Notes: generated by a model not told the origin, from the sequence alone. A DNA stretch of 64,000 nucleotides from Bryobacterales bacterium (GCA_963716685.1 CAVQTR010000003.1:3225500-3289499); one strand, 5' to 3'. Shown: positions 13,451 through 45,030, counted from the stretch's first letter. Numbers and translations are program-made.

Positions 13451-13452
13451 GG

Positions 13453-17935: not shown

Positions 17936-17937
17936 TG

Positions 17938-25315: not shown

Positions 25316-28300
25316 CTAGAAGGCGAAGCGAAGCTGAAGATCAATTCGGCGATTATTGGTGCTTCCGCCCGGCGGCCCGAAACCGCCGCCCCCCAGAGCA
25401 TTGGCCACTCCAAAGAATGGAGACGTGAGATCGCCGTTGTAGTTCGCCGGGTTCACATGGTTCAACAGGTTCCGCGCGTTGGCCGAAATGGTCAGGTTGT
25501 AGCGCTTGTTGGTGACACCGCCGCCACCGCCGCCCATGCCGCCCATCATGCCGGGCATCCCGCCGCCGCGTCCACCGCCACCGCCACCGCCCCCGCGTCC
25601 GCCGCCGCCGCCCATACCACCGCCACCGCCGCCGCCCCCGGTGTTGGGACGGGCAGCGCCCTCACCAAAGCCCCATGTCTTCGAAATGCGAAGGTTCACG
25701 GTGAACGTCCCGGGGCCCTGACCATAGTTGCGGGGAATCAGCGCGGAGCCGGGCACGGGATTCAGATAAAAATCCCCGTAAGCCGTGCATTTTACGTTGT
25801 TTGTGCCGCAGGCAGAAGCCGGCGCAAACGACGGGCGTCCGTTAAAGAGAGTGGTGCCGTAGACGTCGTGTCCCACTGTAATGTTGAACGGCGGTCCCGT
25901 CTGCATCGTGATGAACGGGCTGAAGCGGACGTTGTACTTCGCGTTGAACGATCCGCTAATGATGCCGCGATGGCGAATGTCCTGTGAGGAACGGCCGTAA
26001 TCCTGAGACAGATTGTACTGGTCGGCCGGAAAGGAACCGGCACCGTCCGTGTTGCTGTGTGCGTGAGCGAACACGTAATACCCGAATACGGATAGATTCG
26101 CGTTAATCCGGGAATTTACATTGGTAATCAATTGATTCTGATTAAATGTTCCGTTGGATTCATATTGGAACAGGTTGCCTGCGGCCGCGCCGTACGGGAA
26201 CGCGCCGCCGACGACGCTTCCGCGGTTATTGAAGATCGCGGTGCCGTCGAGGGGGGCATTAATGTCGCGGGAGAGAAACTGATGCGTGGTGTGCGACATC
26301 ATGTAGTTCACCGCGATCGTCGTGTTGTAAGGAAGGCCGCGTTCCACGCCGATCGCTCCCTGATAGGTAGCGGGCGCGTGAAGGTTGGGGTCCAGCGTGT
26401 AAATGGTGCTGGCGGAAGATCCACTCTGGCCCGCCAGGGCCTGAATAGTGGCGATGGAGGGGACGTTAGGGAAGAAGTTCGGCGACGTGATGATGTAGGA
26501 ATGCTGCAGGCTGCCGTTAAAGCGCTCGGTCTGCAACACGTTCGACACGTTGAAGCGGTCGTAGAAAATACCCGCGCCGCCGCGGACCACCGTCTTCGAT
26601 TTGCCGGCCTGACCGGGCGACCAGGCAAAGCCAAGACGCGGGGCCACATCGGAATGGTCGTGGATATTGGTCTGATACTCGTACCGGATACCGCCGCTCA
26701 GGGTCAGGTTGGGGCGGACGCGCCAGTCGTCCAGAAGGAAGACGCCGACATCGGTTTGGTTCAGCCCAATATAAGGACTACCGGTCGCGATGGAGAACTG
26801 CGTGGCTCCGGCCCCGGCAGCGGTGAGCTGAGTAGGGGTATAGCCAAGCGCCTGCAGCTGGAGGGTGCGCTGATAGAGCTGCAGCGAGGTCAGCTGCACG
26901 CACGTAGTGGTGACGCTCTGCGAAGGCGAACAGCCAGGCAGCGGATTGTTGTTGGCATCGAGCGCCGGGGCAAGCGCGCTCGCGAACTGGAAGGAGCCGC
27001 CGAAATTCTGCGCGGAGGAGTTGTTTACGAAGTACGAACGCAGGCGGAACCCGGCTTTGATCGAGTGTGCACCCTGCGCCAGCGAGGTATAGTTCTGCAG
27101 TTCGGCATGATGCTCCTTGTCATACGACCGTCCCACCTGGCTGCCGCCGCCGCTGAAGGACTGCAGCACGTTGATGGAAGGAAGCGAGTTGTCGCCCGTC
27201 TGGACGCTGTTGGTCATCAGGTACTGGAACCGGGTTTCGTTAATGACTTTGGTGCTCAGAACGGCGGTTTCCGTGATGCGCACGCTCTGTTCGGTGTTTT
27301 CGGTGTTGTAGGCCTGCGAAGGCAGAGTAAACTGCCCGAGACCCGCATCGCTCTGCTTCTGCTGCTGGAAGGAGTAGCGCATCACGATGGTGTTATTACC
27401 GTTGATCTGATAATCCAGCCGCGGGCTGATCTCGTTGCGCGAATTCGGCGTGGGAACCGAAGTGCTGAACGGGGCCGGCTGCAGAGCGCTGTTCAGGGTG
27501 TAGGCATTAATAATTGCGTTGTCGTTGATGGCGCGGCGCTGCAGGTCGAGAAAGAACGAAGCCCGCTTGCTGAGCGGGCCGCTCAGATTGCCCTCATACA
27601 GTTTGGATTGGAAGGTGGGGCTGAAATTGTTGGTCGCAACGGTCCCCGGGCTCAAACCCGTAACCGCCGCGCCGGGCTGCTGTGAGGCCACCAGAAACGG
27701 GTTGCGCGAGTTGAAAACCGAATCGCTGTCGTTGAACATCACCGAGCCGCGGAACTTGTCCGTACCCGGCTTGGTCAAAATTTCAATGCGGCCAAAGCCG
27801 ATGTGATCGTATTCGGCCGAGAAGGGATTCTGGTTGATGCGGATTTCACGGATGGAAGACTTGGGAGGCAGGTTGCCGCCGGTGAATCCATCGATATAGA
27901 TCTGGCCCCCGTTGGGACCGGCGGAAGGACCGGCAAGCGCCTGAAGATCGGCTGCCAGATCGTCGGGATCGTCGGGGAGAGCTTCGAGGTCGCTGCCCTT
28001 CAGAACCAACTGGCCGGCGTTGGCCACCGGATCCACGCTAACAGTGCCGACAGCGTCGGAACTGACCGTGACTTCCTGCTTATTGGCCTGGAGGTCGAGC
28101 GGGATGCTAAGGGTCTGAGTCCTGCCGGCCGCGATCGAGATTGGCTTTGAATTGTACGGAGCGAAGCCAAACTTGGTGATCTGGACGGTGTAGTTACCGG
28201 GCGCCAGGGCAGCGGCAGTAAACGAACCGGTCTCGTCTGTGGAGAGCGTCTTCGACGTGCCCCTTCCGGCCACAATCACGGCGGCTCCGGGGATGGCCGA

Positions 28301-28423
28301 ACCCGTTACATCCGTCACCTGACCTTTCAGGGTGCCGCCGGGAGCAGGCTGCGCATCGGCCCCGGGGGCCAGTATGCCCAGGCAAAGAAGGAAAAGGGAA
28401 AGACAGGTTCGATTTCGAGACAT
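25316..28423 (-). CDS. TonB-dependent receptor with N-terminal carboxypeptidase-regulatory-like domain, and a Gly-rich insert near the C-terminus
   Basis: The start is the ATG at 28423 (MSRNRTCLSLFLLCLGILAPGADAQ). A CarbopepD_reg-like domain follows (GTLKGQVTDVTGSAIPGAAVIV..), then the plug and barrel. (G)n run: GGGGGGGGMGGGGGRGGGGGGGGRGGGMPGMMGGMGGGGGG. Terminal aromatic residue F. Confidence 0.85.
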   Translation of the reverse strand: MSRNRTCLSLFLLCLGILAPGADAQPAPGGTLKGQVTDVTGSAIPGAAVIVAGRGTSKTLSTDETGSFTAAALAPGNYTVQITKFGFAPYNSKPISIAAGRTQTLSIPLDLQANKQEVTVSSDAVGTVSVDPVANAGQLVLKGSDLEALPDDPDDLAADLQALAGPSAGPNGGQIYIDGFTGGNLPPKSSIREIRINQNPFSAEYDHIGFGRIEILTKPGTDKFRGSVMFNDSDSVFNSRNPFLVASQQPGAAVTGLSPGTVATNNFSPTFQSKLYEGNLSGPLSKRASFFLDLQRRAINDNAIINAYTLNSALQPAPFSTSVPTPNSRNEISPRLDYQINGNNTIVMRYSFQQQKQSDAGLGQFTLPSQAYNTENTEQSVRITETAVLSTKVINETRFQYLMTNSVQTGDNSLPSINVLQSFSGGGSQVGRSYDKEHHAELQNYTSLAQGAHSIKAGFRLRSYFVNNSSAQNFGGSFQFASALAPALDANNNPLPGCSPSQSVTTTCVQLTSLQLYQRTLQLQALGYTPTQLTAAGAGATQFSIATGSPYIGLNQTDVGVFLLDDWRVRPNLTLSGGIRYEYQTNIHDHSDVAPRLGFAWSPGQAGKSKTVVRGGAGIFYDRFNVSNVLQTERFNGSLQHSYIITSPNFFPNVPSIATIQALAGQSGSSASTIYTLDPNLHAPATYQGAIGVERGLPYNTTIAVNYMMSHTTHQFLSRDINAPLDGTAIFNNRGSVVGGAFPYGAAAGNLFQYESNGTFNQNQLITNVNSRINANLSVFGYYVFAHAHSNTDGAGSFPADQYNLSQDYGRSSQDIRHRGIISGSFNAKYNVRFSPFITMQTGPPFNITVGHDVYGTTLFNGRPSFAPASACGTNNVKCTAYGDFYLNPVPGSALIPRNYGQGPGTFTVNLRISKTWGFGEGAARPNTGGGGGGGGMGGGGGRGGGGGGGGRGGGMPGMMGGMGGGGGGVTNKRYNLTISANARNLLNHVNPANYNGDLTSPFFGVANALGGGGFGPPGGSTNNRRIDLQLRFAF

Positions 28424-28466
28424 AGGGTAGTTACAGGTAAGTTCCGGTTCGTTGGATTTCCCCACG

Positions 28467-29732
28467 TTACTGTGGGATGGACATTTCAAAGTTCCAGCCG
28501 CCATCGACAGCCGAGCGGCCGCCGCCTTTGGTAGGAGCGGTAAGCAGCGGCTCCACGCCGGCTACCAGGCTGATTGCCGTCACGCTGGTGGGATCGCCGC
28601 CACCGGAGCTCGAAACCATAATGGCATCGCCCGGTTTCAGATCGGCAAGGGTAATCGTCGGGGCATTTTCAAGGACGCGTGCGGGGTCGAAGCGACGTCC
28701 GCCGCCAAAGCCGCCGCCACCCGGACCACCGCCGCCCGGACCGCCGGGTCCGCCAGCGCGGGGCTGGCCATCACCGGAACCATACGCGGGACGTCCCTCG
28801 GCTCCGGCAGGACGGCCCTGACCACCGCCAGGACCACCGGCGCCGCCTGGACCACCCGCTCCGGGAGCGCCACCCCCGGCTGCCGCGCCTGCCTGCTGCC
28901 GCGCCATCATGGCCGCCAGCATGGCAGGCAGTTTCTTCACGGTCGTGCTGTCATTGACCTTAACGGTCACGGGCTTCTTCGTGGCGAGATCGGTCATGCG
29001 CACCGTTTTGGCCGCCGCGTCCACCGAAATGATGGTGCCCGCCTGCCGGACGAACGTTCCATACACAATCTCTTCCGGCTTCACCCGCAGGCCGTCTTCC
29101 GACTTTTGCCCCAGCACGCGAATGGTATCGCCCGCTTTGATTTCGGAAAGGCTGCTTGGCTTGGCGTCGGAAAACTTGACGGAATCCGCCGCGTAGCGAT
29201 GCACTTCGGCTTTATCGACGGGCTCCACCACAATCTGCCTGGGATCGGTGCCGATGGTCTTGAAGGTAATCTCCTTCGTAGCGGGATTGACCAGCGTCAC
29301 CGTCCCGGCGAGGCCGCGCTTCTGCCACTCTTCCTGGCCGGCCTGCTGGTGTTTCGCCAATTCGGCCTTGGTCATCACCACCATCGTGGTCGCGGGGCTG
29401 AAGCTGCCGTTGTCCAGCTTGCGCACCCGGGCAAGAGCGCGATCGCCAACGCCCAGATCACCTTCTTTCACTTCGGTTGCTTTTTTCAGGTCTTTTTCGC
29501 CGGGCGCGAGTTTCAGAAAGTGTGTCTTATCGTCAAACGTGACAGTCGAGGAAGTGCCGTTATCGGCTTTGATGGTCACCTGTTTGGTGGCACTGTCCAG
29601 CGCGGTCACTTCGCCCAGGATGCTCGCAAAGGCCGATGGTTTTGACGCCGGCGCCGTGGCCGCGTCCTGCCCCACAGCCGGAAACGATGCGGCTGTAAGA
29701 CAGATGATGCTCAAAACAGAGAACTTCCACAT
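28467..29732 (-). CDS. secreted repeat protein (four roughly 70-aa beta-rich repeats, DUF5666-like) with a Gly/Pro-rich linker
   Basis: ATG at 29732 gives MWKFSVLSIICLTAASFPAVGQ. Internal repeats have the form T(V/I)T..D..T....V.V.....(K/V)..L..L..GD.I.V. Linker: GGGAPGAGGPGGAGGPGGGQGRPAG...GGPGGPGGGGPGGGGFGGG. Confidence 0.5.
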   Translation of the reverse strand: MWKFSVLSIICLTAASFPAVGQDAATAPASKPSAFASILGEVTALDSATKQVTIKADNGTSSTVTFDDKTHFLKLAPGEKDLKKATEVKEGDLGVGDRALARVRKLDNGSFSPATTMVVMTKAELAKHQQAGQEEWQKRGLAGTVTLVNPATKEITFKTIGTDPRQIVVEPVDKAEVHRYAADSVKFSDAKPSSLSEIKAGDTIRVLGQKSEDGLRVKPEEIVYGTFVRQAGTIISVDAAAKTVRMTDLATKKPVTVKVNDSTTVKKLPAMLAAMMARQQAGAAAGGGAPGAGGPGGAGGPGGGQGRPAGAEGRPAYGSGDGQPRAGGPGGPGGGGPGGGGFGGGRRFDPARVLENAPTITLADLKPGDAIMVSSSGGGDPTSVTAISLVAGVEPLLTAPTKGGGRSAVDGGWNFEMSIPQ

Positions 29733-31179: not shown

Positions 31180-31254
31180 TGGAGCGGGAGACGAGAATCG
31201 AACTCGCAACCAACAGCTTGGAAGGCTGTGACTCTACCATTGAGTTACTCCCGC
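31180..31254 (-). tRNA. tRNA-Gly (anticodon TCC), 3' CCA encoded
   Basis: Minus-strand sequence: GCGGGAGTAACTCAATGGTAGAGTCACAGCCTTCCAAGCTGTTGGTTGCGAGTTCGATTCTCGTCTCCCGCTCCA. It has a 7-bp acceptor stem, an anticodon loop CTTCCAA and a T-loop GTTCGATTC. Confidence 0.8.
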
Positions 31255-31328: not shown

Positions 31329-32326
31329 ATGAGCCTCCGAACCTTTCTGGGCAAGCAGTTTATCGATGTAATCGACTTTACCGAGCCGGAGGATGGCATC
31401 CTGGCCTACCGCTATCCGATGCAGGACCGCGAAATCCAGAACGGCGGCAAGCTCACCGTGCGCGATTCGCAAATGGCCGTCTTCGTCAACGAAGGCAAGA
31501 TCGCGGACGTGTTCGGCCCCGGTCTCTACACCCTGAACACCCAGACCCTGCCGATCCTTACCTACCTGATGAACTGGGACAAGGCGTTCCAATCGCCTTT
31601 CAAGAGCGACGTCTATTTCTTCTCGACGCGCATCCAGACCAACCAGCGCTGGGGCACCCCGAACCCGATCACCATCCGCGATAAGGATTTCGGCGTTATT
31701 CGCCTGCGCGGCTTCGGCATCTTCTCGTATCACGTCAGCGATCCCAAAACCTTCTACAGCAAGGTCAGCGGCACTCGCGATATCTATCATGTTGCCGATC
31801 TCGATGGCCAGCTCCGCAACACCATCGTCGGCCGCATGTCCGATTCGTTTGCCGCCAGCAACGTGCCGTTTCTTGACATGGCCGCCAATCAGATGATGCT
31901 GGGCAACAAAATCGCAGGATTCCTGAAACCGGTATTCGTCGATCTGGGCCTGACGCTCGATTCGTTCGTCGTCGAAAACCTCTCGCTGCCGGAAGAACTG
32001 CAGAAGATTCTCGATCAGCGCATCGGCATGAACATGCTGGGCGATATGAACCGGTACACCCAGTATCAGGTGGCCAACTCGCTCCCCATCGCGGCCGCTA
32101 ATGAAGGCGGACTGGCGGGGGCCGGAGCTGGCCTCGGCGCCGGTTTCGCCATGGCGCAGACGCTGGGCAACGCGCTGCGTCCCCAGCAGCCGCCGCCTGC
32201 TCCGGCTCCGGAAGCGTGCCGCTCCGGCCACTCCCTCCACCGAAACCAAGTTCTGCATCGACCTGCGGCAAGCCCATCCCGAAAGGCGCCAAATTCTGTC
32301 CGGAGTGCGGCGGTCCTCAGCAATAA
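31329..32326 (+). pseudogene. SPFH/band-7 family protein with C-terminal zinc ribbon (COG4260, virion-core-like); two frameshifts in the zinc-ribbon tail
   Basis: N-terminal SPFH domain (MSLRTFLGKQFIDVIDFTEPEDGILAYRYP...) and a Pro-rich linker. The zinc ribbon (T.TKFCIDCGKPIPKGAKFCPECGGPQQ*) is split across three frames within about 80 nt (32200-32326). The listed 447-aa ORF is a read-through chimera with the next gene. Confidence 0.65.
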
Positions 32327-32327
32327 C

Positions 32328-32672
32328 ATGTCCGGCTGCGAGTGGCTCATCGAAGCCCACGGTTGCAGCGCCGGCGTGCTGGCGGATGGCGAGGCGCTGC
32401 GCGAGCTCTTCGCCCAGGTCATCGCCGCCCTGGATCTGCACCCGGTGGCGGAAACCAAGTGGCACCAGTTCCCTGCTCCCGGCGGCATCACCGGCCTGTG
32501 CCTGCTTTCTGAAAGCCACCTGGCGTGCCACACCTTTCCGGAATTCGGCTCGCTGTGCCTCAATGTCTTCTGCTGCCGCGAGCGGCCCGACTGGGCGTTC
32601 GACGACTGCCTGCGTGCGCTCTTCGGCGCTACCCGCGTGATGGTGCGCAAAGTCGAGCGCCCCTATCAATGA
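32328..32672 (+). CDS. S-adenosylmethionine decarboxylase-like pyruvoyl-dependent proenzyme (SpeH/AdoMetDC family)
   Basis: ATG at 32328, two nt after the TAA of the zinc-ribbon frame. Contains LLSESHLACHTFPE, the ES|S self-cleavage site of bacterial AdoMetDC-type proenzymes. 114 aa. Confidence 0.7.
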   Translation: MSGCEWLIEAHGCSAGVLADGEALRELFAQVIAALDLHPVAETKWHQFPAPGGITGLCLLSESHLACHTFPEFGSLCLNVFCCRERPDWAFDDCLRALFGATRVMVRKVERPYQ

Positions 32673-33307
32673 CATCACGCCAATTGCCCGAACTGCGGCG
32701 CGCCGGTGCAGCTGCTGTGGTCGGGCGCCGTCCAGACCACCTGCCCTTTCTGCAAGTCGATACTGGTTCGGCGCGACGTCAATCTGGAGAAAGTCGGGCG
32801 TGGTGGCCGATCTTCCGCCCGACAGCTCGCCCATCCAGATCGCGACCGAGGGAAGCTGGGGCGGCAAGACCTTCGTCGTAGTCGGCCGCATCCTTTATGA
32901 ATACGATCAGGGCGGCTGGAACGAGTGGCACATCATCTTCAGTGATGGCGCGAGCGGCTGGCTTTCGGACGCGCAGGATGAATTTGCCGTCTCATTCCTG
33001 ACACCCGCGCCCGCGCCGATGCCATCCGCCAGCGCCCTGCAGCGCGGCGGAAGCTTCACCTGGGGCGGCACGCGCTATGAGATCACCGTGATCACGCCCG
33101 CGCATTACAAAGGCGTGGAAGGCGAGATGCCCTTTCAATACGTGGGACAAACACGAAGCGCTCTTCGCCGATCTGCGCACCTACGACGCGCGCTTCGGCA
33201 CCATCGATTACAGCGGCGAACCGCCGGTTCTCTATCTGGGAGCGGCTGCCGAATTCGACGACCTCGCGCTCCGCAATCTGCGCCAGTTTGAAGGTTGGGA
33301 TTCATGA
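32669..33307 (+). pseudogene. DUF4178 domain protein with N-terminal zinc ribbon, frameshifted
   Basis: ATGA overlap with the previous gene. Pieces in three frames: CPNCGAPVQ..TTCPFCKSILVRRDVNLEKVG / VADLPPDSSPIQIATEGSWGGKTFVVVGRILYEYDQGGWNEWHIIF / ...TKEALFADLRTYDARFGTIDYSGEPPVLYLGAAAEFDDL*. Confidence 0.55.
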
Positions 33308-34477
33308 TCCCGAAGCTTTCCGGCCTTAATTGTCCCAGTTGCGGCGCGGCGCTCGAGATCCGTTCGTTCGGCAACGCTCTGAACGTCGTCTGCCCAAACT
33401 GCCTTTCGGTGCTCGACGCCAAAGATCCCAACCTGCGCATCCTGCAGGAGGCGAAAGGCGCGGGAGAAAGTGGCGCCGCTGATTCCGCTGGGCACGCGCG
33501 GCACGCTGGGCGGCGTGATATACGAAGCCATCGGATTCCAGGTTCGCACTGTTACCGAGGAAGACGGATCGTACGCCTGGCAGGAATATCTGCTCTTCAA
33601 CCCGTATCGCGGCTTCCGCTACCTGACGCAGTACCACGGCCACTGGAACCTCGTTCGCACCCTGCAGTCGCTGCCAGAACCGGTCTCCGGGCGCGCGGTG
33701 CGCTGGAACGGCGAAACCTACCGGCGATTCTCCAGCGCTCAGGCCGCCACCTCTTACGTTGTCGGCGAATTTCCCTGGCAGGTGCGCGTCGGTGAAACCG
33801 CTCAGGTGGCCGATTACGTTCACGTGCCCCGCGGCATCTTCAGCGAATCCACCGCGGACGAAACCGTCTGGTCGCTCGGCGAGTACATCACCGGCGAAGA
33901 GGTTTGGAAAGCCTTCGCTCTGCCGGGCGCGCCGCCCGCCCGCTTCGGCGTATTTGAGAACCAGCCATCGCCCTACACGGACACCGTCGCCGCCATGTGG
34001 ATGCAGGGTTTGAAACTGCTGGCTGCTGCCGTGGTGGTGGCCTTTCTCTTCTCCGCTGTTTCCGGCCGCCAGGTGTATCGGCAGAGCATCCAGGTCAGTG
34101 CCGGCGAGGTGCTCACGCCGCCGTTCGCTGTCGGCGGTCACCTCTCAAACCTGCAAATCGTCACCCACAATCAGACCGGCGAGCGCGTCTTCGTCACCTA
34201 TTCGTTAATCGATCAGCGCGGCGGTCCGGCGCACACATTTTCCCGCGACGTGAACCGTGAGGACAAAGCAACCATTTCATCCATCGCTGATGGCACCTAT
34301 CGCCTGCGTGTGCAGCCCGGCCGCTATCCCGCGCAGCTCGATCTGCAGGTTCGCCGCGGTGTTCCCTCCATGAGCTTCTTCTGGTTTACCGTGGTGCTTC
34401 TTCTCTTACCGCCGCTGCTGCGCACCATGCGCCGCTATTCATTTGAACGCGAGCGCTGGCAGGAGAGCGGCGGCTAG
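33304..34477 (+). pseudogene. DUF4178 domain protein paralogue (zinc ribbon, DUF4178 domain, C-terminal TM region), one frameshift near 33470
   Basis: MIPKLSGLNCPSCGAALEIRSFGNALNVVCPNCLSVLDAKDPNLRILQEAKG, then a frame change, then APLIPLGTRGTLGGVIYEAIGFQVRTVTEEDGSYAWQEYLLFNPYRGFRYL... This parallels the upstream paralogue. Confidence 0.55.
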
Positions 34478-34479
34478 CC

Positions 34480-34665
34480 ATGCGCCACCCTTTTTACACA
34501 ATTTACGGCATTGCGCTCATCGGTCTTATGGGCTTCGCGCAGTTCCGGGGCTGGACGCTCAACTCGCTGAATCAGGAGCCTTCCTCACCGCGCTCCGTGC
34601 GCGACAATCCCGGCGCGTATCGCTCCACTTACGGCGGCTATTCTCGATATACAGGAGGAAAGTGA
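34480..34665 (+). CDS. small membrane protein
   Basis: 61-aa ORF with one TM helix (IYGIALIGLMGFAQF), tightly packed between the DUF4178 and DUF350 genes. Confidence 0.35.
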   Translation: MRHPFYTIYGIALIGLMGFAQFRGWTLNSLNQEPSSPRSVRDNPGAYRSTYGGYSRYTGGK

Positions 34666-34878
34666 ATGGAACAGTTCAGTATCGGCAATCTGGTGAACGC
34701 TTTGATTTACTCAGCGCTGGGCATTCTGATATTCGTGTTGACCTTCGTGCTGATCGATAAGCTGACGCCGTACCATCTTTGGAATGAGATCGTGCGCGAG
34801 CACAACACGGCTCTCGCGATTCTAATCGGCGCGATGTCCATCGGCATGTGCATCATCATCGCCGCGGCCGTACATTAG
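34666..34878 (+). CDS. DUF350 family small membrane protein
   Basis: 70 aa with two TM helices (LIYSALGILIFVLTFVLIDKLTPYHLWNEIVREHNTALAILIGAMSIGMCIIIA), as in YjfL/DUF350. Confidence 0.55.
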   Translation: MEQFSIGNLVNALIYSALGILIFVLTFVLIDKLTPYHLWNEIVREHNTALAILIGAMSIGMCIIIAAAVH

Positions 34879-34879
34879 C

Positions 34880-36380
34880 TTGAACCTGCTTCTCTTCCTT
34901 TCCGTCCTCCTGATCGCCGCGTGCGGGCTGATCTATGAGCTGGTCGCCGGCACGCTCGCCAGCTATTTGCTGGGCGACAGCGTGCTTCAGTTTTCCACGG
35001 TCATCGGCAGCTACCTGTTCGCCATGGGCATCGGCAGTTGGCTCTCGCGCTTCCTGCACCGCGGCCTCGTGGCCCGCTTCGTCTCCGTCGAACTGATGGT
35101 CGGTCTGGTCGGCGGCTTCTCCTCTTCCCTGCTCTTCCTCGCCTTCGCGTGGACGCAGAGTTTCCGCCTGGTGCTGTATCTGGTCGTCGATCGCCATTGG
35201 AGTGCTGGTGGGCCTCGAAATCCCGCTGCTGATGCGCATCCTCAAAAACCGGCTGGAGTTCCGCGAACTCGTCGCGCAATGTCCTCACGTTCGATTACCT
35301 CGGCGCGCTGGGCGCCTCGCTGCTGTTTCCGCTGCTGCTTGTGCCGCACCTCGGTATGGTGCGGTCCGCGCTGCTGTTTCGGCATGGTGAACGCCGGCGT
35401 TGCGCTCTGGTCCACGTTTCTCTTCCGCCAGGAAATTCCACGCGTCGCGATGCTGCGCGCCGGCTGTATCGCCGTGCTGCTCGCCCTGGCCGGCGGCATG
35501 GCTCAGGCCGACTGGATTTCTTCAGCCGCCGACAATCAGCTCTTCGCCGATCAGGTGATCTTCTCCAAACAAACCCGATACCAGCGCATCGTCCTCACGC
35601 GTTGGAAAGATGATCTGCGCCTTTTCCTCAGTTCGCATCTGCAGTTCAGTTCACGCGATGAATATCGCTACCACGAGGCGCTGGTCCATCCCGGTTTGTC
35701 CGCCGTTCCCGCACGCGCGTCGCGTCCTCGTGCTGGGCGGCGGCGACGGCCTTGCCGTTCGCGAAATCCTAAAATACCGCGGCGTCGAAGCCATCACACT
35801 GGTCGATCTCGATCCGGAGATGACCAAGCTGTTCTCCACAAACGCGATGCTTACCGCTCTGAACCTGCATTCGCTTACGAACGCCCGCGTGCACGTCATC
35901 AACGCCGATGCCTTCGTCTGGCTCGACGAACATCCGGATATGTTCGATTTCGTGGTCGTCGATTTTCCCGATCCCACCAACTACTCGCTCGGCAAGCTCT
36001 ACACCACGGCTTTCTATCGGCTGCTCGGCAAGCATCTCAGCGCACGCGGCCTTGCGGTCGTCCAGAGCACGTCGCCCATGTTCGCGCGCCAGTCTTACTG
36101 GTGCATCGAAACAACCCTGCGGCAGGCCGGCCTGCGCACGTGGCCCTACCATGTCTACGTTCCCTCTTTCGGCGAGTGGGGTTACATGCTTGCCGGGAAC
36201 GGCGACTGGGAGCCGCCGGCGACCCTTCCCGCCAACCTGCGCTTCCTTTCCGCGCAGACTCTGCCCACCATGTTTCAGTTCCCGGCCGACATGCAACCGG
36301 TTCCCGCCGAAGCCAATCGCCTGAACGATCAGGTGCTGGTGCGATACTACGAGCGCGATTGGAATGACATCGCGCATTAG
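34880..36380 (+). pseudogene. spermidine synthase-like polyamine aminopropyltransferase with N-terminal multi-TM domain, frameshifted at least 3 times
   Basis: N-terminal TM domain (MNLLLFLSVLLIAACGLIYELVAGTLASYLLGDS...). The C-terminal SpeE fold (VLVLGGGDGLAVREILKY...VDLDPEMT...VVVDFPDP) lies in another frame, with two short intermediate frames between. Confidence 0.65.
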
Positions 36381-37848
36381 CCGCCGCGAAGTACTCAGCG
36401 CCGGTCTGGCCGGCCTGACTCGCAAGACCGACCGGCCCGTAGCCGGTTCCTTCGTGAATGACGACTTCGTCCGCGGCCATCAGCTGCGCGATCGCGCGCG
36501 CTTTTCCACGCCGTCGCGAACCGTCAAAGTGCCGGCAGTTATCGTCGGTGGCGGCATCGCCGGCCTCTCCGCCGCGTGGCGCTTCTCAAAACGCGGCTTT
36601 CACGATTACGTGCTCCTCGAAATGGAGAAGCAGCCTGGCGGCAACTCCCGCAGCGGCAGCAACGCGGTATCCGCTTACCCGTGGGGCGCGCATTACGTTC
36701 CCGTACCCAGCCACAAATCCGCCCTCGTTCGCGAACTGTTCGCAGAGCTCGGCCTGGTTCGCGACGGCGTCTGGGATGAGCGCCAGCTCTGCTTCTCGCC
36801 GCAGGAGCGGCTGTTCCTCAACGGACAGTGGCAGGAAGACATCGAGCCGCACGACGGCCTGAGCGCGCGCGACCGCGACCAGATGAAACGCTTCGGCGAA
36901 CGGATGCGCGCCTTCCACGCCACCGGAAAGTTCACCATTCCCATGGCGGAAGGTGCGAGCCCCTCCGAGCTGGATTCGCTCAACATGACCGAATGGCTGC
37001 GGCGCGAGCGCTTCGATTCGCCCTACCTGCACTGGTATGTCAACTACGCCTGCCGCGACGATTACGGCGCGCTCGCCCGCGACACCTCGGCGTGGGCCGG
37101 CATCCACTACTTCGCCGCGCGCGAGGCCGACGACAAAGGTCCGCTCACCTGGCCGGAAGGTAACGGCTTTCTGGTGAAGCAGCTGCTCGAGCGCGTTGCG
37201 TCTCATGTTCGCACAGACGCCATGGTGCATCGCATCCGTCAGGACGGCGCGTTCTGGCGGGTAGCCGCCGCCGACACGGAATATCTGACTCGCACCGTGA
37301 TCTTCGCCGCGCCCACGTTTCTTGCTCCTTACGTGATCGACCCCGCGCCGCTGGTGCCGGAGCGCGAATATTCGCCGTGGATGACAGCCAATCTCACGCT
37401 CGACCGCCTGCCCAAAGAAGGCGGCGCCGAACTCGCCTGGGACAACGTGATTTACGATTCGCCGGCGCTTGGCTACGTTGTCGCCACCCATCAATCGCTG
37501 CGCACGCAGGAAGAGCGCTCCGTCTGGACTTATTACTGGTCGCTCGCCGAAGGTTCACCCGCTCAGAATCGCAGACTGCTGATCGAGAAGGACTGGGCTT
37601 ACTGGCGCGATTCCATCCTCAACGATCTGGCACGCGCCCATCCCGATATCCGGCAGTGCGTTTCGCGCATCGACGTCATGCGTTTTGGCCACGCCATGGC
37701 GCGGCCCACGCCGGGATTTCTTAGCATGCGCGCGCCGGTCGCCCCGCGGCTTCACTTCGCCAACTCCGATCTCAGCGGGTTCTCTATCTTCGAAGAGGCG
37801 CAGTACCGCGGCGTGACGGCAGCCGACCAGGCACTTCGCGATCTCTGA
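36364..37848 (+). CDS. FAD-dependent amine-oxidase-like oxidoreductase with Tat signal
   Basis: SRREVLSAGLAGL Tat motif and a Rossmann FAD motif (VIVGGGIAGLSAAWRF), with an amine-oxidase-like fold. 494 aa, intact. It overlaps the SpeE-like gene by 17 nt. Confidence 0.75.
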   Translation: MTSRISRREVLSAGLAGLTRKTDRPVAGSFVNDDFVRGHQLRDRARFSTPSRTVKVPAVIVGGGIAGLSAAWRFSKRGFHDYVLLEMEKQPGGNSRSGSNAVSAYPWGAHYVPVPSHKSALVRELFAELGLVRDGVWDERQLCFSPQERLFLNGQWQEDIEPHDGLSARDRDQMKRFGERMRAFHATGKFTIPMAEGASPSELDSLNMTEWLRRERFDSPYLHWYVNYACRDDYGALARDTSAWAGIHYFAAREADDKGPLTWPEGNGFLVKQLLERVASHVRTDAMVHRIRQDGAFWRVAAADTEYLTRTVIFAAPTFLAPYVIDPAPLVPEREYSPWMTANLTLDRLPKEGGAELAWDNVIYDSPALGYVVATHQSLRTQEERSVWTYYWSLAEGSPAQNRRLLIEKDWAYWRDSILNDLARAHPDIRQCVSRIDVMRFGHAMARPTPGFLSMRAPVAPRLHFANSDLSGFSIFEEAQYRGVTAADQALRDL

Positions 37849-39153
37849 TTACAGCGGCGGCTCCATCGGCAGCGCGAGCGGCGGCTCTTTCAGGAAATCC
37901 AGCCGCGACATCTCTTCCACCGCTTCGCACATCGCGCTCTCAGAGGTCATCTCCGTCGTGATCACGAACGGCAGATCGTGTTTCGTTTCGCAGGGTCGCT
38001 GCAGCACCGCTTCCAGACCGATATGCTTCGCCGCCAGAATACCCGCCAGCGCCGCCGTGATGCCCGGCCGGTCTTCCACGCGGAACCGCAGGTAATAAGG
38101 ACGCCTCTGCAGCCGGACCGAGACGGGCTGATACTCGCCAAGGCGCTCGTGCGCAAAAGGCGAAACGCGCTCCGGACTGCCGGAACGGATCTCGCGCGCG
38201 ACGCGCATCAGATCGCTGACTACCGCGACACCCGTGGGATTGGGACCGGCGCCGCGCCCGTAGTAAAAAGTGTCCTGCCCGTAATGGCCCTTCACCCAGA
38301 CCGCGTTGTACGCGCCCTGCACGCCGGCCAGAATAGTCGATTGCGCAATCAGCGCCGGCCGCACCGAAAGAATCAGCCCGTCATGCGTCTGGTCGGCGGA
38401 ACACACCAGCCGGATAGTGTGGCCCAACTGATGCGCGTATTCAAAATCAAGCGGCGTGATGCGGCGGATGCCTTCCACGAAGATGTCCGTCGGCGTGATG
38501 CGTTCCCCGAACGCCAGCGCCGCCAGTATCGCCAGCTTGGAGCGCGCGTCGTAGCCATCGACATCCGCGCTCGGGTCGGCTTCGGCATACCCCAGACGCT
38601 GCGCTTCGGCGAGCACCTTCTCCAGCGGCTCGCCGTGCTTCTCCATCTCCGTCAGGATGAAGTTACTGGTTCCGTTGAGAATCCCCTTGAGCGCCACCAC
38701 GCGGTCGCCGGAGATACCTTCGCGCAGCACGGCGTGAATCGGAATGCCGCCGGCGACGCTCGCCTCCATCGCCAGATTGATACCGGCCTGAATCGCGCGA
38801 TCCCAGATCTCCGAGCCGCACAGCGCCATCAACTCTTTGTTCGCGGTCACGACCGATTTGCCATGCGCGATGGCTCCGTCGATAATCTCTCGGGCCACGC
38901 CGGTTCCGCCGACCAACTCCGCCACCACATCCACCTGAGGCAGCGCCACCAGCTGCCGCCAGTCGGCCGTCCGGAACACACCGTTCAACTCGGCCGGCAG
39001 CGCCGCCGCGGCCACCGAACGGCTGCACACGGCAACCACTTTCAGCTGGAAACCGAGCTTCAACGCGATCTGCTCCGCGTTGCCCGTCAGGATGGAAATC
39101 GCCCCGGTTCCCACGTTCCCCAGGCCCACGATCCCCACGTTCACTTCACGCAT
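37849..39153 (-). CDS. hom: homoserine dehydrogenase
   Basis: N-terminal NAD-binding region (VGIVGLGNVGTG), a central catalytic domain, and a C-terminal ACT domain. 434 aa. Confidence 0.9.
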   Translation of the reverse strand: MREVNVGIVGLGNVGTGAISILTGNAEQIALKLGFQLKVVAVCSRSVAAAALPAELNGVFRTADWRQLVALPQVDVVAELVGGTGVAREIIDGAIAHGKSVVTANKELMALCGSEIWDRAIQAGINLAMEASVAGGIPIHAVLREGISGDRVVALKGILNGTSNFILTEMEKHGEPLEKVLAEAQRLGYAEADPSADVDGYDARSKLAILAALAFGERITPTDIFVEGIRRITPLDFEYAHQLGHTIRLVCSADQTHDGLILSVRPALIAQSTILAGVQGAYNAVWVKGHYGQDTFYYGRGAGPNPTGVAVVSDLMRVAREIRSGSPERVSPFAHERLGEYQPVSVRLQRRPYYLRFRVEDRPGITAALAGILAAKHIGLEAVLQRPCETKHDLPFVITTEMTSESAMCEAVEEMSRLDFLKEPPLALPMEPPL

Positions 39154-39521: not shown

Positions 39522-40071
39522 ATGGCACTTACCCGCGAAAAAAGTCAACTCATGAGTGCGTCCGAAATCGACCGGACGCTGGTGCGCCTCGCGCACGAGA
39601 TCCTCGAACGCAGCCACGATCTGGATCAGCTTGCCTTCATCGGAATCCGGCGGCGCGGAGTACCGCTGGCGCAGAGGCTGGCGCAAAAGATTTCGGCGCT
39701 TGAGAAGCGTACAATTCCGGTCGGGATTCTGGATATCAATCTGTATCGCGACGACCTCTCCACGGTGGGTGCGAAACCCGTGATTGGCACCACGGAGATT
39801 CCCTTTCCCGTACAGGGCAAGGACATCATTCTGATGGACGACGTGCTCTACACCGGCCGCACCATTCGCGGCGCGCTGGATGCGCTGTTCGAGCACGGCC
39901 GCCCGGCGCGCGTGCAGTTGCTGGTGCTCATCGATCGCGGGTCATCGCGAACTGCCGATCGAAGCCCGTTTCATCGGCCGCACCGTGCAGACCAGCGACC
40001 GCGAGATCATCGAAGTGAAGTTTCAGGAAATCGACGGCATGGAAAAGGTGCTGCTGGTCGAGAAGGTCTGA
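39522..40071 (+). pseudogene. pyrR: bifunctional pyrimidine operon regulator/uracil phosphoribosyltransferase PyrR, one frameshift near 39945
   Basis: The PRPP-binding motif (IILMDDVLYTGRTIRGALDAL) is in the listed ORF. The C-terminus (HRELPIEARFIGRTVQTSDREIIEVKF...) is in another frame (ORF 39880-40071). Confidence 0.75.
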
Positions 40072-40074
40072 CGC

Positions 40075-40985
40075 GTGGCGAACGGGCTGCTCGGCATCGA
40101 ACACCTGGAGCGCGCGGAAATCGAAGCCATTCTGAAGCGGGCCAGGGATTTCCAGCCCGCGCAGAACGAACCCTTCCAACGTTTCGAAACGTCTGCGCGG
40201 CAAAATGATCGTGAACCTGTTTTTCGAGGCCTCCACTCGCACGCGGACCAGCTTTGAAATTGCCGCGAAGCGGCTGGGCGCGGAAGCACTTTCCATCACG
40301 GCCAGCGGTTCCAGTGTTTCGAAAGGCGAATCTCTGGTGGACACGCTGAACACCCTTGCCGCCATGCGGCCGCAGGCAATCGTGATGCGACATTCCGCCT
40401 CCGGAGCCCCTCAGTTTCTCGCTCGCTACCTGCCGATTCCCATCATCAACGCCGGGGACGGAACGCATGAGCATCCCACGCAGGCTTTGCTGGACGCGCG
40501 AACCATTTTGGATCGGCGCGAGTCGCTGGAAGGGCTGCGCGTCGCGATCATCGGCGACATTGCGCACAGCCGCGTAGCTCGCTCGAACGTGCATCTGCTC
40601 TCGAAGTTTGGCGCCAACATCGTGCTGTGCGGACCGGCCAATCTGCTGCCGCGCGAACTGGCCGCAGCTGGCGCCGGGCGTCACCCTGACCAACGACATT
40701 CAGGAAGCCATTCAGGACGCCGACGTGGTGATGATGCTGCGCGTGCAGCTGGAGCGTCAGCATGAAATCCCCATGTCCGCGGGCGAATACTTCCAGTTCT
40801 TCGGCCTGCGTCTGGAACATCTGGCTCTCGCCAAACCCGATGCCATCGTGATGCATCCGGGGCCGATCAACCGCGGCCGCGAGCTTTCAAGCGAAGTGGC
40901 AGACAGCCAGCGTTCGGTGATCTTAAACCAGGTAGAGAATGGAATCGCGGTGCGCATGGCAGTGCTCGAGCGGGTGGTGGGATGA
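40075..40985 (+). pseudogene. pyrB: aspartate carbamoyltransferase catalytic subunit, two frameshifts
   Basis: Pieces at 40075-40257, 40205-40765 ([15 protein letters not shown], the carbamoyl-phosphate binding STRTR motif) and 40608-40985 (HPGPINRG). Confidence 0.8.
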
Positions 40986-42275
40986 AGACTCTGCACATCC
41001 GGAACGGCCGGGTGATCGATCCCGCTTCGCAGTTTGATGGCGTGACCGACATCTGGATTGTCGAGGGGAAGATCAGCCGTGAGCGGCCGTCCGGCGACGG
41101 CTGGGATGTGTTCGATGCCGCGGGCATGGTGGTGGCGCCAGGCTTCATCGATATGCACGTGCACCTGCGGGAGCCCGGGCTCGAGCATGCGGAGACCATC
41201 GAAAGCGGTTCGCGCGCGGCGGCAGCGGGCGGCTTTACCACCATTTGCTGCATGCCCAACACCAAGCCGGTGAATGACAGCGCCACCGTGACGAGTTACA
41301 TCATCGAGCGCGCGCGACGAGCCGCCGTGGTGAATGTGCTGCCCATCGGCGCGATCACCAAGGGCAGCGCCGGCGAGGAACTGGCGGCGATCGGATCGAT
41401 GAAGAAGGCCGGCATTGTGGCGATTTCCGACGATGGCCGCCCGGTGATGAACTCGCGCGTGATGCGCCGCGCCATGGAGTTTGCGCGCTCGCTCGATCTG
41501 CCGGTGATTGATCATTGCGAGGATCTGAATCTGAGCGCGGGCGGCGATATGCACGAAGGCGTGGTCTCGACGCGTCTGGGCCTGCGCGGGATTCCGTCGA
41601 GTTCCGAAGACGTGATGGTGGCGCGCGATATTCTGCTGGCCGATGCCACCGGCGCGCGTTTTCATGTGGCTCATATTTCCACCCGTCATTCCGTTGCCAT
41701 GGTGGCGTTTGCAAAAAGCAAAGGCCTGCCCGTCACCTGTGAAACCACGCCGCACCATTTCGCGCTGACCGATGCCGGGGTCGCCGCTTACGACAGCAAC
41801 TACAAAATGAAGCCGCCGCTGCGCTGCGATCATGACGTGGACGCGGTCATCGAGGGCATTGTTTCGGGCGCCATCGACGTGATTGCCACTGACCATGCGC
41901 CCCATGCCGGCAGCGAGAAGATGCAGGAGTTCGAGCGCTGCCCGTTCGGGATTACCGGCCTTGAAACAGCCATCGGTCTAACCACTGGAACGGCTGGTGC
42001 ATACCGGCAAAATCTCCCTCCCACGCATGGTGGAACTGTTCACCACCGGTCCGGCGCGGGTGCTGCGGCTCGACCGGGGAACCCTGGCGCACGGCGCGCC
42101 GGGAGATGTGACCATCTTCGATCCGGAGCTGGCGTGGACCTACGACGTCAATCGTTCATTCTCGAAGAGCCGGAACTCGCCGTTCGACGGACACCGATTT
42201 CGCGGGGGCCCGGTGGCTGCGATCGTCAATGGAGCGATCGTCTGGTCCCGTCAGAACCCGGGAACTTTGGCGTAA
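40982..42275 (+). pseudogene. pyrC: dihydroorotase, one frameshift near 42000
   Basis: Metal-binding motifs ([10 protein letters not shown], ...HVAHIST.., ATDHAPH) in 40982-42000. The C-terminal part ([20 protein letters not shown]...) is in another frame (41997-42275). Confidence 0.8.
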
Positions 42276-42340: not shown

Positions 42341-44713
42341 TTAGTTCATCAACAGTGCCATCATCGCACCGGCAATCTCTTTGCCGCGCTCGCCCACTTC
42401 GCCAATGGGGCCCACGCATGACGGGCAGCCGGTCTCGCACGGGCAGTTCGATACCAGCTCCCGCGTGCGCCGCACCAGCTCTTCGCCCATGCGGAACAGC
42501 GGTGCGCTTTGGCCCACTCCGCCGGGATAGCTGTCGTACAGGTACAGATTCGGCTCCCAGTTCGCCACCGAGCCTTCCGCGTTCTCCGTAACGGCGAGGC
42601 CCAGATCGCGCGGATCGCACATCAGCAGCAGCGACGCGACGGTGCGCAGCGCATTGCCCAGGCCCGTCAGACCGTTCTGTTTTTCCACCGGCTGTAAAGG
42701 GCAAGCTGTGCCAGAAACGCCGCCGGGAAATGCAGCCAGAAAGACGTGGTGTGCATTTCCTGTTCCGGCATGGAGAGCTTCCCGGCCCCCACGTTTTCCA
42801 GCGTGTAAAACTTGATCTTCTTGAACCCGACAATCTGCCGGTTTACGCGCACGTCGCCGTGCGCCTTTTCCGCCTGCCCGGCCGGCGCCGCTTCGAACTC
42901 GCGCAGCACTTTCACCTGCGTGTAATCGATCGCGTCGGTATAGTAGTCGCAATCCACGCGCCTCACATAGGCTTTGCGCTCCTTGTAATCGAAATGCTCC
43001 ACATGGAACTGCTTCGCCTCATGCAGATAAATCGCTTTCTCATGCAGCGTGGTGAGCGCCGTGGTGAAGCAGACGTCCGCGATGACTTTCGGCTCACCCG
43101 TGATATCGACCACCACGAAGTTATCGCTGGACACGGCGCGCAGCGAGACGGCATCGGCCGGATACGTGTCCGAAGTCCAGTGCCAGTTATCGCCGGACTG
43201 GTGCAGAAAGCCCGATTCGGCCAGGAACACGACAAAGTTCACGAGTGTCGTGACGGCCGAACTGTTCGCCGTCGCGCAGCGGCAGTTCGAACGCCGCGCA
43301 CTTCAGATGATTGAGCAGGATTTCCAGGTTATCCGCATTCACCTGCGCATGCTCGGGCGAGCTGCCGAAGAAGTATTCCGGATGCTCGACGATGTACTGA
43401 TCGAGCGGCGCGCTGGAGGCAACCAGAACCGCGGCGGAAGGCGTCTGGCGGCGTCCCGCGCGACCGGCCCGCTGCCAGGTGGAAGCGATGGTTCCGGGAT
43501 AGCCGGCCATCACCACCGCATCGAGCGAGCCAATGTCGATACCCAGTTCCAGCGCATTGGTGGCAACCACGGCGCGGATATCGCCAGCGCGCAGACGGCG
43601 TTCGATCTCCCGGCGTTCGCGCGGCAGGTAGCCGCCGCGATAGCCGCGCACCGTTTCGGTGGGGATGCGGCCGTTGTCGCAGGCGTCCTTGAGATAGGTC
43701 ACCAGCACTTCCATGGCGAGTCGGTTGTTGGCGAAGACCAGCGTCTGCTGTTCGCGGTCGATGAACTCAAGCGCGATGCGGCGGGTCTCATTGATGTAAC
43801 TGCGCCGGATGCCCAGCTGGCGGTTGACCACCGGCGGATTGTAGAAGACGAAATACTTCTCGCCGGACGGCGCGCCGCTGCGATCCACCATTTCAAAGGG
43901 CGCGCCGGTCAGCGTTTGCGCCAGTTCGCGCGGGTTCGCAATGGTGGCCGAACAGCAGATGAACACCGGCTTCGATTGGTAGAACTCGCAAATGCGCGCC
44001 AGACGCCGCAGCACATTCGCCATGTGGCTGCCGTAAACGCCGCGGTAGTAGTGCAGCTCATCGATGACGATGTACTGCAGGTTCTCGAACAGCTTCGCCC
44101 ATTTGGTGTGGTGCGGCAGAATGCCGCTGTGCAGCATGTCCGGATTCGTGAACACCACGTTGGCGCGCTGGCGAATGGCTCGTCGCGCATCCTGCGGCGT
44201 GTCGCCGTCGTACGTGAAGGCGCGAATGTCCGAGCCCATTTCCTCCACGATTTCGTGGAACTCATGCAGCTGATCTTCGGCCAGCGCCTTGGTGGGAAAC
44301 AGGTACATGGCGCGCGCGCCGGGATCGCGCATCAGCAGATCGAGCACCGGCAGGTTGTAGCAAAGCGTTTTACCGCTGGCGGTGGGCGTGACGATCACCA
44401 GATTCCTGCCCGCGGTGACCACCTCGAACGATTCGGCCTGATGGCTGTACAGCCGTTCGATGCCGCGGGCCTTCAGGACATCGCGCAGCGCTGGCTGGAT
44501 GCTTTCGGGCACGGGCGCGAACGAACCCTCGCTCGCGGGCCGGTGATGGATGGCGCGTACGGGACCTTCGGGCTGCGCGGCCAGCGCCTCAAATTTGGAA
44601 ATGACCGCGGCCAGATTCGGGCTGAGCGCGCGCTGCAGCTGGTTCGCCATCGCGGGCGTGAAGTCCGGTTCCTGGAAGAGGGATGGCTGCGGCGCGCCGG
44701 GGGAAAGCTCCAT
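42341..44713 (-). pseudogene. DEAD/DEAH-box helicase with C-terminal DUF1998 four-Cys domain (MrfA/YprA-like DNA repair helicase), frameshifted at least 2 times
   Basis: Walker A (TPTASGKT), DEAH-like box (IVIDELHYY) and helicase C domains in 43187-44713. The DUF1998 region, with CPCETGCPSCV, is in ORFs 42667-43242 and 42341-42952. Confidence 0.7.
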
Positions 44714-45030
44714 TACTCGGGTTTGGGCCGGACGAACTTGTGCTTATCGATGGTGGCGGTTACCAGAAACGGCATCTCGGCATCGCCTGGGACGGCTTCG
44801 ATGCGCAGCACTTTTCCGGTGCAGTGAATGCGCACCGGCATTTCGCCATCGGCAAGAGTAATCTCGTATTCGATTTTGCCGCCGAGTTTCACTTCTTTGG
44901 CCGAGGGAAAAGAAACGCCGCCGGAACTGACATTAGCGGTTTTGGTGGTACGCGAAACGCGTTTGCCACCCAGAACCGAGATCTGGACCGGAAGGTTGAT
45001 CTCGAAGCGATGCGACTGCCGCTTGTTCAA
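44713..45030 (-). CDS. PilZ domain protein
   Basis: TTG start at 45030 preceded by AGGAGGG. RQSHRF (RxxxR) ... NVSSGG (DxSxxG-like). 105 aa. Stop/start overlap with the helicase gene (TAATG). Confidence 0.55.
   Translation of the reverse strand: MNKRQSHRFEINLPVQISVLGGKRVSRTTKTANVSSGGVSFPSAKEVKLGGKIEYEITLADGEMPVRIHCTGKVLRIEAVPGDAEMPFLVTATIDKHKFVRPKPE

Follow-up and report, generated by a model that had tools for sequence, protein, structure and literature searches.

The question raised by the locus described here is whether a dense run of genes that looks largely broken in a genome assembly is a functional unit and, if so, what that unit does. The genes lie at positions 31329-37848 on the + strand of a 64,000-nucleotide stretch of DNA from a Bryobacterales bacterium (GCA_963716685.1 CAVQTR010000003.1:3225500-3289499), a stretch that is called the window at its full length. 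An earlier reading of this DNA, made without database searches and referred to below as the sequence-only reading, had proposed a co-directional cluster of seven or eight genes with start/stop overlaps beside tRNA-Gly, in which polyamine-type enzymes are combined with membrane proteins and most genes are frameshifted. On balance we favor the interpretation that a Bryobacteraceae-like acidobacterium carries here an envelope operon of eight intact genes, which looks broken only as a result of insertion errors, and that its products would carry out aminopropyl transfer at the membrane.

The interval is a single dense coding run of eight tightly packed genes that encode, in order, an SPFH protein, an S-adenosylmethionine decarboxylase (AdoMetDC)-like proenzyme, a soluble and a membrane DUF4178 protein (DUF4178a and DUF4178b), a 61-aa protein, a DUF350 protein, a membrane aminopropyltransferase with a SpeE-like domain, and an FAD amine oxidase. 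It is flanked by tRNA-Gly(TCC) (31180-31254, - strand) on one side and by a convergent homoserine dehydrogenase gene (hom, 37849-39153, - strand) on the other, and no further long open reading frame (ORF) with a local coding signature is present between 31329 and 37848. ATGA overlaps connect AdoMetDC with DUF4178a and DUF4178a with DUF4178b, a 17-nt overlap links the SpeE-like gene to the oxidase gene, and only 0-2 nt separate the genes at the remaining junctions. The proposed co-directional run was thus found gene by gene on the + strand where it had been predicted, and its eighth member, which the sequence-only reading had left unnamed, is the conserved 61-aa protein with a single transmembrane (TM) helix. 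A Pfam scan of ORF pieces of the window, together with an NCBIfam scan, recovered all of the predicted families (Band_7_1, AdoMet_dc, DUF4178 twice, DUF350, Spermine_synth and Amino_oxidase), among them the AdoMetDC, SpeE, DUF4178 and DUF350 families for which a profile search had been suggested. We also considered whether the run is a horizontally acquired island beside a tRNA gene; this was not supported, as GC content is uniform (0.60-0.64) and the downstream hom gene is syntenic in a relative (L003).

Three-frame translation of the window places mid-gene frame changes in four of the genes, with two in the SPFH gene, three in DUF4178a, one in DUF4178b and four in the SpeE-like gene. The AdoMetDC, 61-aa, DUF350 and oxidase genes are unbroken in the window as given. 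The frameshifts noted in the sequence-only reading therefore hold as a description of the window, where four genes are split and the oxidase is intact, but they do not characterize the locus itself. When the long piece of DUF4178 was used as a protein query, it retrieved a 390-aa protein (P0002) that is 100% identical over the query and whose contig (L001) is a 4535-bp Logan assembly of run ERR11523676, independent of the window assembly and derived from a strain that is 98.9% identical. This contig covers the cluster from SPFH to the SpeE-like gene, and none of its genes is broken, apart from the outermost two being cut off where the contig ends. When aligned to window positions 31473-36017 it is 98.7% identical over 4545 columns, with 49 mismatches and 10 gaps, and each of these gaps corresponds to one surplus base of the window, located at 32215 and 32261 (SPFH), at 32677, 32800 and 33139 (DUF4178a), at 33459 (DUF4178b) and at 35190, 35276, 35380 and 35711 (SpeE-like). 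None of the 10 inserted bases has a homopolymer context, and eight complete ORFs are regained once they are deleted.

Frame breaks of this kind extend well beyond the cluster. For example, domains of housekeeping proteins encoded in the window are split between frames, including OTCace of pyrB (profile positions 1-39 and 59-155), Amidohydro_1 of pyrC (1-260 and 277-320) and the A_M domain of an ATP-dependent DNA ligase (72-160 and 173-204). For a census of frame switches in the 64-kb window we built a codon-usage frame hidden Markov model, which is conservative in that its filtered census regained only four of the 10 known cluster shifts. Outside of the cluster it called 19 further intragenic switches, 14 of them in the +1 direction, as compared to true gene junctions that divide 4 versus 10 with no +1 bias. 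The window consequently holds some 29 or more frame errors, concentrated at 11.8-21, 32-36 and 39.5-44 kb. Additionally, in a 65%-identical relative (L002) the SPFH, DUF4178a and SpeE-like genes are split in an ENA/NCBI contig from a metagenome-assembled genome (MAG) and whole in a Logan contig with the same protein. Since the independent contig is intact, all of the length differences are +1, and housekeeping genes are split likewise, we read the breaks as spurious single bases inserted by the assembly, which the locus itself does not carry. The names under which related loci are recorded (MFD... bins, contig_NNNN) suggest soil MAGs built from long reads; precisely how the extra bases arose in the window is an inference.

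The alternative is that the operon is truly decaying in this organism, with the SPFH gene, both DUF4178 genes and the SpeE-like gene being pseudogenes and the oxidase being kept for another role. The 10 frame-breaking bases in four of eight genes are what such decay would leave in the window as given, yet we regard it as very improbable, as a mix of insertions and deletions is more plausible for real decay than 10 changes that are all +1 insertions, and as the same kind of break affects pyrB, pyrC and the DNA ligase, occurs at least another 19 times in other parts of the 64 kb (14 of the +1 type), and appears in some of the same genes in the relative's MAG contig but not in its Logan counterpart. 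The substitutions that separate the window from the near-identical strain are also strongly biased to third positions. The 49 substitutions fall at first, second and third codon positions in a ratio of 11/5/33 and give 31 synonymous versus 14 non-synonymous codon changes, with the latter mostly conservative. Because they are mostly third-position and synonymous, the locus has been under purifying selection until now. Pseudogenisation specific to the cluster was rejected on the comparison with the independent contig, the substitution bias, the split housekeeping genes and the window-wide distribution of shifts. A practical lesson is that +1 insertion errors are a problem of the window as a whole, and that genes which this assembly shows as pseudogenes should not be accepted as such.

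Elsewhere in the window, broken regions are located at 11860-13440 (-), 14713-15495 (+), 16579-18906 (+), 19111-21234 (-), 39522-42152 (+) and 42343-44715 (-). Genes broken in these regions are those for the ATP-dependent DNA ligase (in 5 pieces), pyrR, pyrB, pyrC, a TPR protein, a VWA-like protein and a DEAD/DUF1998-type helicase. The frame shifts are mostly of the +1 type and patchy, and extended regions at 21.4-31 kb and 44.7-51 kb are clean.

The seventh gene of the operon (34880-36380, +) encodes the membrane aminopropyltransferase, which is 498 aa after correction. Hydrophobic helices cover residues 2-207, and a Spermine_synth domain (Pfam, 1.1e-28) follows from about residue 224. The fusion scores 697.5 bits against a cut-off of 472 on the NCBIfam model NF002956/PRK03612 ("polyamine aminopropyltransferase") and 30.2 bits, under the cut-off of 40, on NF037959 ("fused MFS/spermidine synthase"). 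The SpeE-like domain retains the motifs DEYRYHE, GGGDG, DLD and DFPDP and matches the solved structures 7XIF, 6BQ2 and 1UIR with E-values of about 1e-28. The best 120 matches are 497-505 aa long, almost all of them 498 aa, and are 74-92% identical, which makes this the most conserved component of the operon when compared to DUF4178b at 40-67% identity. The fusion is full-length in the Logan twin of L002 as well as in the 120 homologues, and in L001 it is unbroken to the contig end.

An AlphaFold2 model of the fusion contains seven TM helices. The alignment behind this model is shallow, as the homologues are 74-92% identical, and the model is too poor to search for folds related to the membrane domain. 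Counting charges in 36 homologues gave mean K+R values of 2.9, 3.8 and 2.0 after TM2, TM4 and TM6, versus 0, 0 and 1.7 after TM1, TM3 and TM5 and 0.9 in the linker after TM7. By the positive-inside rule this pattern would place the N-terminus inside and, because seven helices precede it, the SpeE-like domain outside the cytoplasm, an orientation that we assign with low to moderate confidence. If the domain does face outward, then decarboxylated S-adenosylmethionine (dcAdoMet) must cross the membrane to reach it.

The putative source of dcAdoMet is the AdoMetDC-like proenzyme (32328-32672, +), an intact class-1b-like protein of 114 aa (Pfam AdoMet_dc, 6.5e-23) that has no export signal. It contains the self-processing motif LSE|SH and matches the Thermotoga maritima AdoMetDC (PDB 1TLU, E 2e-10), with the ESH and the downstream His and Cys residues aligned. 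Since its score of 66.8 bits on TIGR03330 is under the NCBIfam equivalog cut-off of 75.65, we class it as a divergent member of class 1b.

The last gene (36364-37848, +) encodes an intact 494-aa member of the FAD amine-oxidase family (Pfam NAD_binding_8, 8e-13; Amino_oxidase, 1.3e-11; coverage of residues 65-490) for which no NCBIfam model was reached. Its N-terminus, MTSRISRREVLSAGLAGL, begins MTSRISRREVL and thus carries a twin-arginine (Tat) signal, SRREVL, followed by a hydrophobic stretch, and the twin-arginine motif (RRxFL) is kept in 56 of 59 orthologues. Because no clear A-x-A cleavage site is seen in the N-terminus, the signal may be retained as a membrane anchor. When compared with solved amine oxidases, only the FAD-binding N-terminus matches, and weakly (E 4e-4 or worse).

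The other five genes encode proteins without an evident enzymatic function. The first (31329-32326, +) encodes a cytosolic SPFH protein that is 331 aa after correction (Pfam Band_7_1, 5.5e-75), in which Band_7_1 (residues 27-235) is followed by a low-complexity Ala/Gly/Pro linker and a C-terminal CxxC-x10-CxxC zinc ribbon, KFCIACGKPIPKGAKFCPECG. The sequence-only reading had called this an SPFH/zinc-ribbon protein; the SPFH assignment was evident from Pfam directly, and the ribbon is visible only in the frame-corrected protein. No hydrophobic segment is present in the hydropathy profile of the corrected protein, and a PDB sequence search with it returned no match. DUF4178a (32669-33307, +; Pfam 3.8e-11) is a soluble protein of 211 aa after correction that consists of an N-terminal zinc ribbon and a DUF4178 domain, and it is an intact 211-aa gene in L001. 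DUF4178b (33304-34477, +; Pfam 1.1e-17) is a membrane protein of 390 aa after correction that contains, in order, a zinc ribbon, a DUF4178 beta domain, a TM helix, a beta-sandwich of about 100 aa that is predicted to be periplasmic, a second TM helix and a basic C-terminal tail, with the zinc-ribbon/DUF4178 part on the same side of the membrane as the basic tail. Zinc ribbons thus occur in three of the proteins, namely SPFH, DUF4178a and DUF4178b. The intact 61-aa protein (34480-34665, +) has one N-terminal TM helix and a basic Tyr/Gly-rich tail, belongs to no Pfam or NCBIfam family, and is found at the same position in related loci. The intact DUF350 protein of the YjfL family (34666-34878, +; Pfam 3.6e-15) is 70 aa long with two TM helices, its hydropathy peaks lying at residues 12-30 and 51-69.

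A library search with DUF4178b returned 2444 cluster representatives at E <= 1e-3. Many of these are about 630-650 aa long and match the query in two places, more strongly within the C-terminal ~400 residues, and the context loci identify them as fusions of DUF4178a with DUF4178b. Such fusions are common in other lineages, including Gemmatimonadota, Vicinamibacteria and Ralstonia (P0132, P0135, P0146 and others; L084-L087), and constitute a Rosetta-stone-type link between the two proteins. A pattern scan for DUF4178b over one genome per species yielded at least 593 loci. Almost all of the best 80 of these are from Acidobacteriota (Bryobacterales, Terriglobales and the cultured Occallatibacter savannae AB23), with a few from Gemmatimonadaceae. 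By tblastn with the eight corrected proteins, each gene is present in 87-100% of the testable related loci: SPFH in 65/66, AdoMetDC in 74/74, DUF4178a in 77/77, the 61-aa gene in 79/79 at the same position (and also in Gemmatimonadota loci), DUF350 in 78/79, the SpeE-like gene in 65/69 and the oxidase in 55/63. The neighborhood comparison that the sequence-only reading had suggested therefore reveals co-conservation, with all eight genes in the same order in 47 of the 56 loci that have room for the whole cluster, as well as on plasmid 1 of the cultured Gemmatirosa kalamazoonensis KBS708. Neither of the two outcomes that this reading had named as fatal to its proposal, in the profile searches or in the homologous loci, has thus come about.

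Rearranged versions are also found. Two Gemmatimonadota-type contigs lack SPFH and contain AdoMetDC, a fused DUF4178 gene, the small TM gene, DUF350 and the genes for the SpeE-like protein and the oxidase. A third has no AdoMetDC adjoining the cluster, and its oxidase is located a few genes downstream. The Ralstonia solanacearum megaplasmid encodes a fused DUF4178, an SPFH protein (64% identical) and DUF350 on one strand, followed by an ABC transporter and then by the SpeE-like gene (58%) and an oxidase homologue (38%). The operon thus appears to be conserved in three bacterial phyla, with rearranged or fused forms in Gemmatimonadota and Ralstonia.

Several individual loci depart from the common pattern in ways that deserve mention. 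The 3.0-Mb contig L003, with a DUF4178b that is 52% identical, shares with the window a convergent hom gene downstream and contains an extra 206-aa ORF with no Pfam match between the SpeE-like gene and the oxidase (13052-13672). Insertions of about 3.6-4 kb occur inside the operon in L033 (11245-14849) and L062 (11645-15628), in one case after DUF4178b and in the other after DUF350, and these could be a mobile element. In several Terriglobales loci (L025, L028, L038, L064 and L081) the DUF350 match ends at query residue 58, 170-620 nt before the SpeE-like gene, so that DUF350 may be longer there, perhaps as a double repeat, or may be followed by an additional small gene. Finally, a typical acidobacterial operon is present in MAGs labelled Patescibacteria, Betaproteobacteria and Rhodospirillales (L029, L035 and L062); these are probably mis-binned contigs and not real occurrences.

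Comparison with described systems shows that the operon belongs to a known, uncharacterised type of cluster built from AdoMetDC, a membrane-fused spermidine-synthase-like protein, DUF350 and DUF4178. Clusters of AdoMetDC, a membrane-fused spermidine-synthase-like protein and DUF350 were reportedly described by Li, Kurihara, Kim, Liang and Michael in 2019, and the homologous fusions are said not to complement an E. coli speE mutant and to occur in hosts that lack spermidine. Our locus resembles these clusters in having a class-1b-type AdoMetDC beside a protein with an N-terminal multi-TM region and a C-terminal spermidine-synthase-like domain, and in having a DUF350 membrane protein. In contrast, the fusion studied here is not of the MFS class, as its NF037959 score indicates, and has seven TM helices and not 12, so it would represent a sister architecture to the MFS-fused family rather than that exact family. 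Our locus also differs in that it contains SPFH, two DUF4178 genes, the 61-aa TM gene and the Tat oxidase.

The sequence-only reading had likened the locus to the PA4773-PA4775 (speD2/speE2) surface-polyamine genes of Pseudomonas aeruginosa, where an AdoMetDC homologue is similarly paired with a SpeE homologue in an envelope-linked operon. The pairing of SpeD with SpeE is indeed shared, but the likeness is otherwise loose. PA4774 is a soluble SpeE-type enzyme that makes free polyamine, whereas the enzyme here is a seven-TM fusion of NF002956/PRK03612 with DUF4178, DUF350, SPFH and Tat-oxidase partners. The operon is accordingly not assigned to the soluble PA4773-4775 type. The literature on mycobacterial Rv2598-Rv2601 and on Ralstonia speE yielded nothing useful.

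Operons in which CesT/Tir-PspA is accompanied by a seven-TM spermine-synthase-like fusion, YjfL/DUF350, a lipoprotein and DUF4178 have been described, for example at Shewanella oneidensis SO_3765, as have variants with band-7, AdoMetDC and polyamine oxidase (Ravi et al. 2024, PMC11237479). In the supplement of that study the gene context of SO_3765 includes TM-fused Spermine_synth, YjfL/DUF350 and DUF4178, and for the linkage to AdoMetDC its authors refer to Li et al. 2019, Biochem J 476:2579 (Ravi et al. 2024, PMC11237479). The suggestion of a larger, uncharacterised aminopropyl-transfer system is supported, and the system is uncharacterised, but the cluster type had not gone unnoticed. TM-fused Spermine_synth, DUF350 and DUF4178 are likewise encoded together in our operon. 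It differs, however, from those operons in lacking PspA, CesT/Tir, the Ctha_1186 lipoprotein, an RHH regulator and an ATP-grasp ligase; no PspA or CesT domain was detected among the eight products with Pfam or NCBIfam, and the operon begins with SPFH instead. This band-7 protein combines Band_7_1 with a zinc ribbon and has no 2TM or SHOCT domain, and DUF4178 is duplicated into one soluble and one membrane form.

A further parallel exists with the B. subtilis PspA-YdjGHI (SamGHI) system, in which the membrane proteins YdjG and YdjH are needed to bring the cytosolic SPFH protein YdjI/SamI to the membrane (PMC8581546; bioRxiv 10.64898/2026.02.06.704340). Our SPFH protein matches the architecture of YdjI as described in PMC8581546, being an SPFH protein that has no TM segment, a linker and a C-terminal zinc ribbon, and it is similarly encoded with membrane proteins. 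In contrast, our operon has no PspA and no TPM-domain YdjH, its candidate receptors for SPFH are DUF4178b and DUF350, and it is built around polyamine-type enzymes.

Taken with these comparisons, the interpretation that we favor is as follows. A cytoplasmic, pyruvoyl-dependent AdoMetDC would make dcAdoMet, as indicated by its intact processing motif. The seven-TM/SpeE-like fusion, in which the binding and catalytic Asp motifs are conserved, would move the aminopropyl group from dcAdoMet onto an amine acceptor at the membrane. This acceptor is probably an envelope-associated amine rather than free putrescine destined for bulk spermidine synthesis. The flavin amine oxidase, presumably exported through Tat, would act on the periplasmic side to turn over or further process the aminopropylated product. 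The DUF350 protein, the 61-aa TM protein, DUF4178b, DUF4178a and SPFH may form a membrane platform that houses or regulates the transferase, a role suggested by strict co-conservation, the DUF4178 fusion, the three zinc ribbons and the analogy to B. subtilis YdjG/H-YdjI.

A number of observations weigh against this interpretation. The AlphaFold2 model of the fusion is poor (pLDDT 63.5), which makes the helix count and topology tentative, and a periplasmic catalytic domain would require dcAdoMet to be exported by some putative route. The NCBIfam name of the fusion is just "polyamine aminopropyltransferase", and among solved structures its closest relatives are conventional spermidine or thermospermine synthases, which would fit plain polyamine synthesis. 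AdoMetDC was not found within 17 kb of the Ralstonia genes, and the oxidase is missing from 8 of 63 loci. Insertions outside of homopolymers are also unusual for the commonest type of long-read error.

Ordinary polyamine metabolism is the main rival, and we judge it to be rather unlikely. According to this explanation AdoMetDC and the SpeE-like enzyme make a free polyamine (spermidine, thermospermine or norspermidine), membrane anchoring is incidental, the oxidase is a catabolic or back-conversion enzyme, and the remaining genes are unrelated neighbors or function in polyamine transport. The NF002956 score above cut-off, the retention of all dcAdoMet-binding and catalytic motifs, the intact catalytic motif of AdoMetDC, the nature of the closest PDB relatives and the annotation of homologues as spermidine synthase in public sources are all consistent with it. 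It does not, however, explain why five non-enzymatic genes keep their order with the enzymes in 47 of 56 loci and on the Gemmatirosa plasmid, or why the same partners accompany the enzymes in rearranged and fused form in the Gemmatimonadota contigs and in Ralstonia, which would be unexpected for chance neighbors. Furthermore, the oxidase has a conserved Tat signal, whereas pools of free polyamine are cytoplasmic, and the homologous fusions studied by Li et al. reportedly made no spermidine. The resemblance of the SPFH protein to YdjI/SamI, which is part of a membrane stress sensor complex, raises the different possibility that SPFH, DUF4178 and DUF350 constitute an envelope-stress scaffold of the phage shock protein (PSP) kind, with the polyamine enzymes serving as a sensory or regulatory input on polyamine or dcAdoMet levels instead of making an envelope product. 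We find this quite unlikely given that the operon encodes no PspA, CesT/Tir or transcription factor, and that SPFH is absent from Gemmatimonadota versions while the enzymes stay. Additionally, the SpeE-like protein is better conserved than DUF4178b and keeps every catalytic motif, which argues for catalysis as the core function.

A more specific form of the favored membrane-transfer interpretation, which we consider unlikely, is that both of the enzymes that act after AdoMetDC are outside the cytoplasm, where they would attach aminopropyl groups to an envelope amine and take them off again in a cycle. Candidate acceptors would be a lipid head group, a peptidoglycan-linked amine or a hopanoid amine, with dcAdoMet delivered across the membrane by the seven-TM domain or by DUF350. 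This idea derives from the odd number of TM helices that precede the SpeE-like domain, the N-in charge pattern and the Tat signal of the oxidase.

Membrane-fused aminopropyltransferases with AdoMetDC, DUF350 and DUF4178 are widespread. The eight-gene version is near-invariant across soil Acidobacteriota, and it is also present in two cultured organisms, Gemmatirosa kalamazoonensis KBS708 and Occallatibacter savannae AB23. Components occur, rearranged and partly fused, in the tractable Ralstonia solanacearum, and there are consequently concrete organisms and hypotheses for testing. The parts most worth following in the cultured carriers are the acceptor of the transferase and the possible extracytoplasmic chemistry.

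Upstream of the operon the window also contains two very large intact ORFs of 1111 and 1052 aa (21401-24733 and 25319-28474, both on the - strand) that, in contrast to the genes around them, are free of frame errors. One of them has poly-Thr and poly-Gly runs, and the other resembles an outer-membrane protein of the CarboxypepD_reg/TonB-dependent-receptor type with a long poly-Gly tract.

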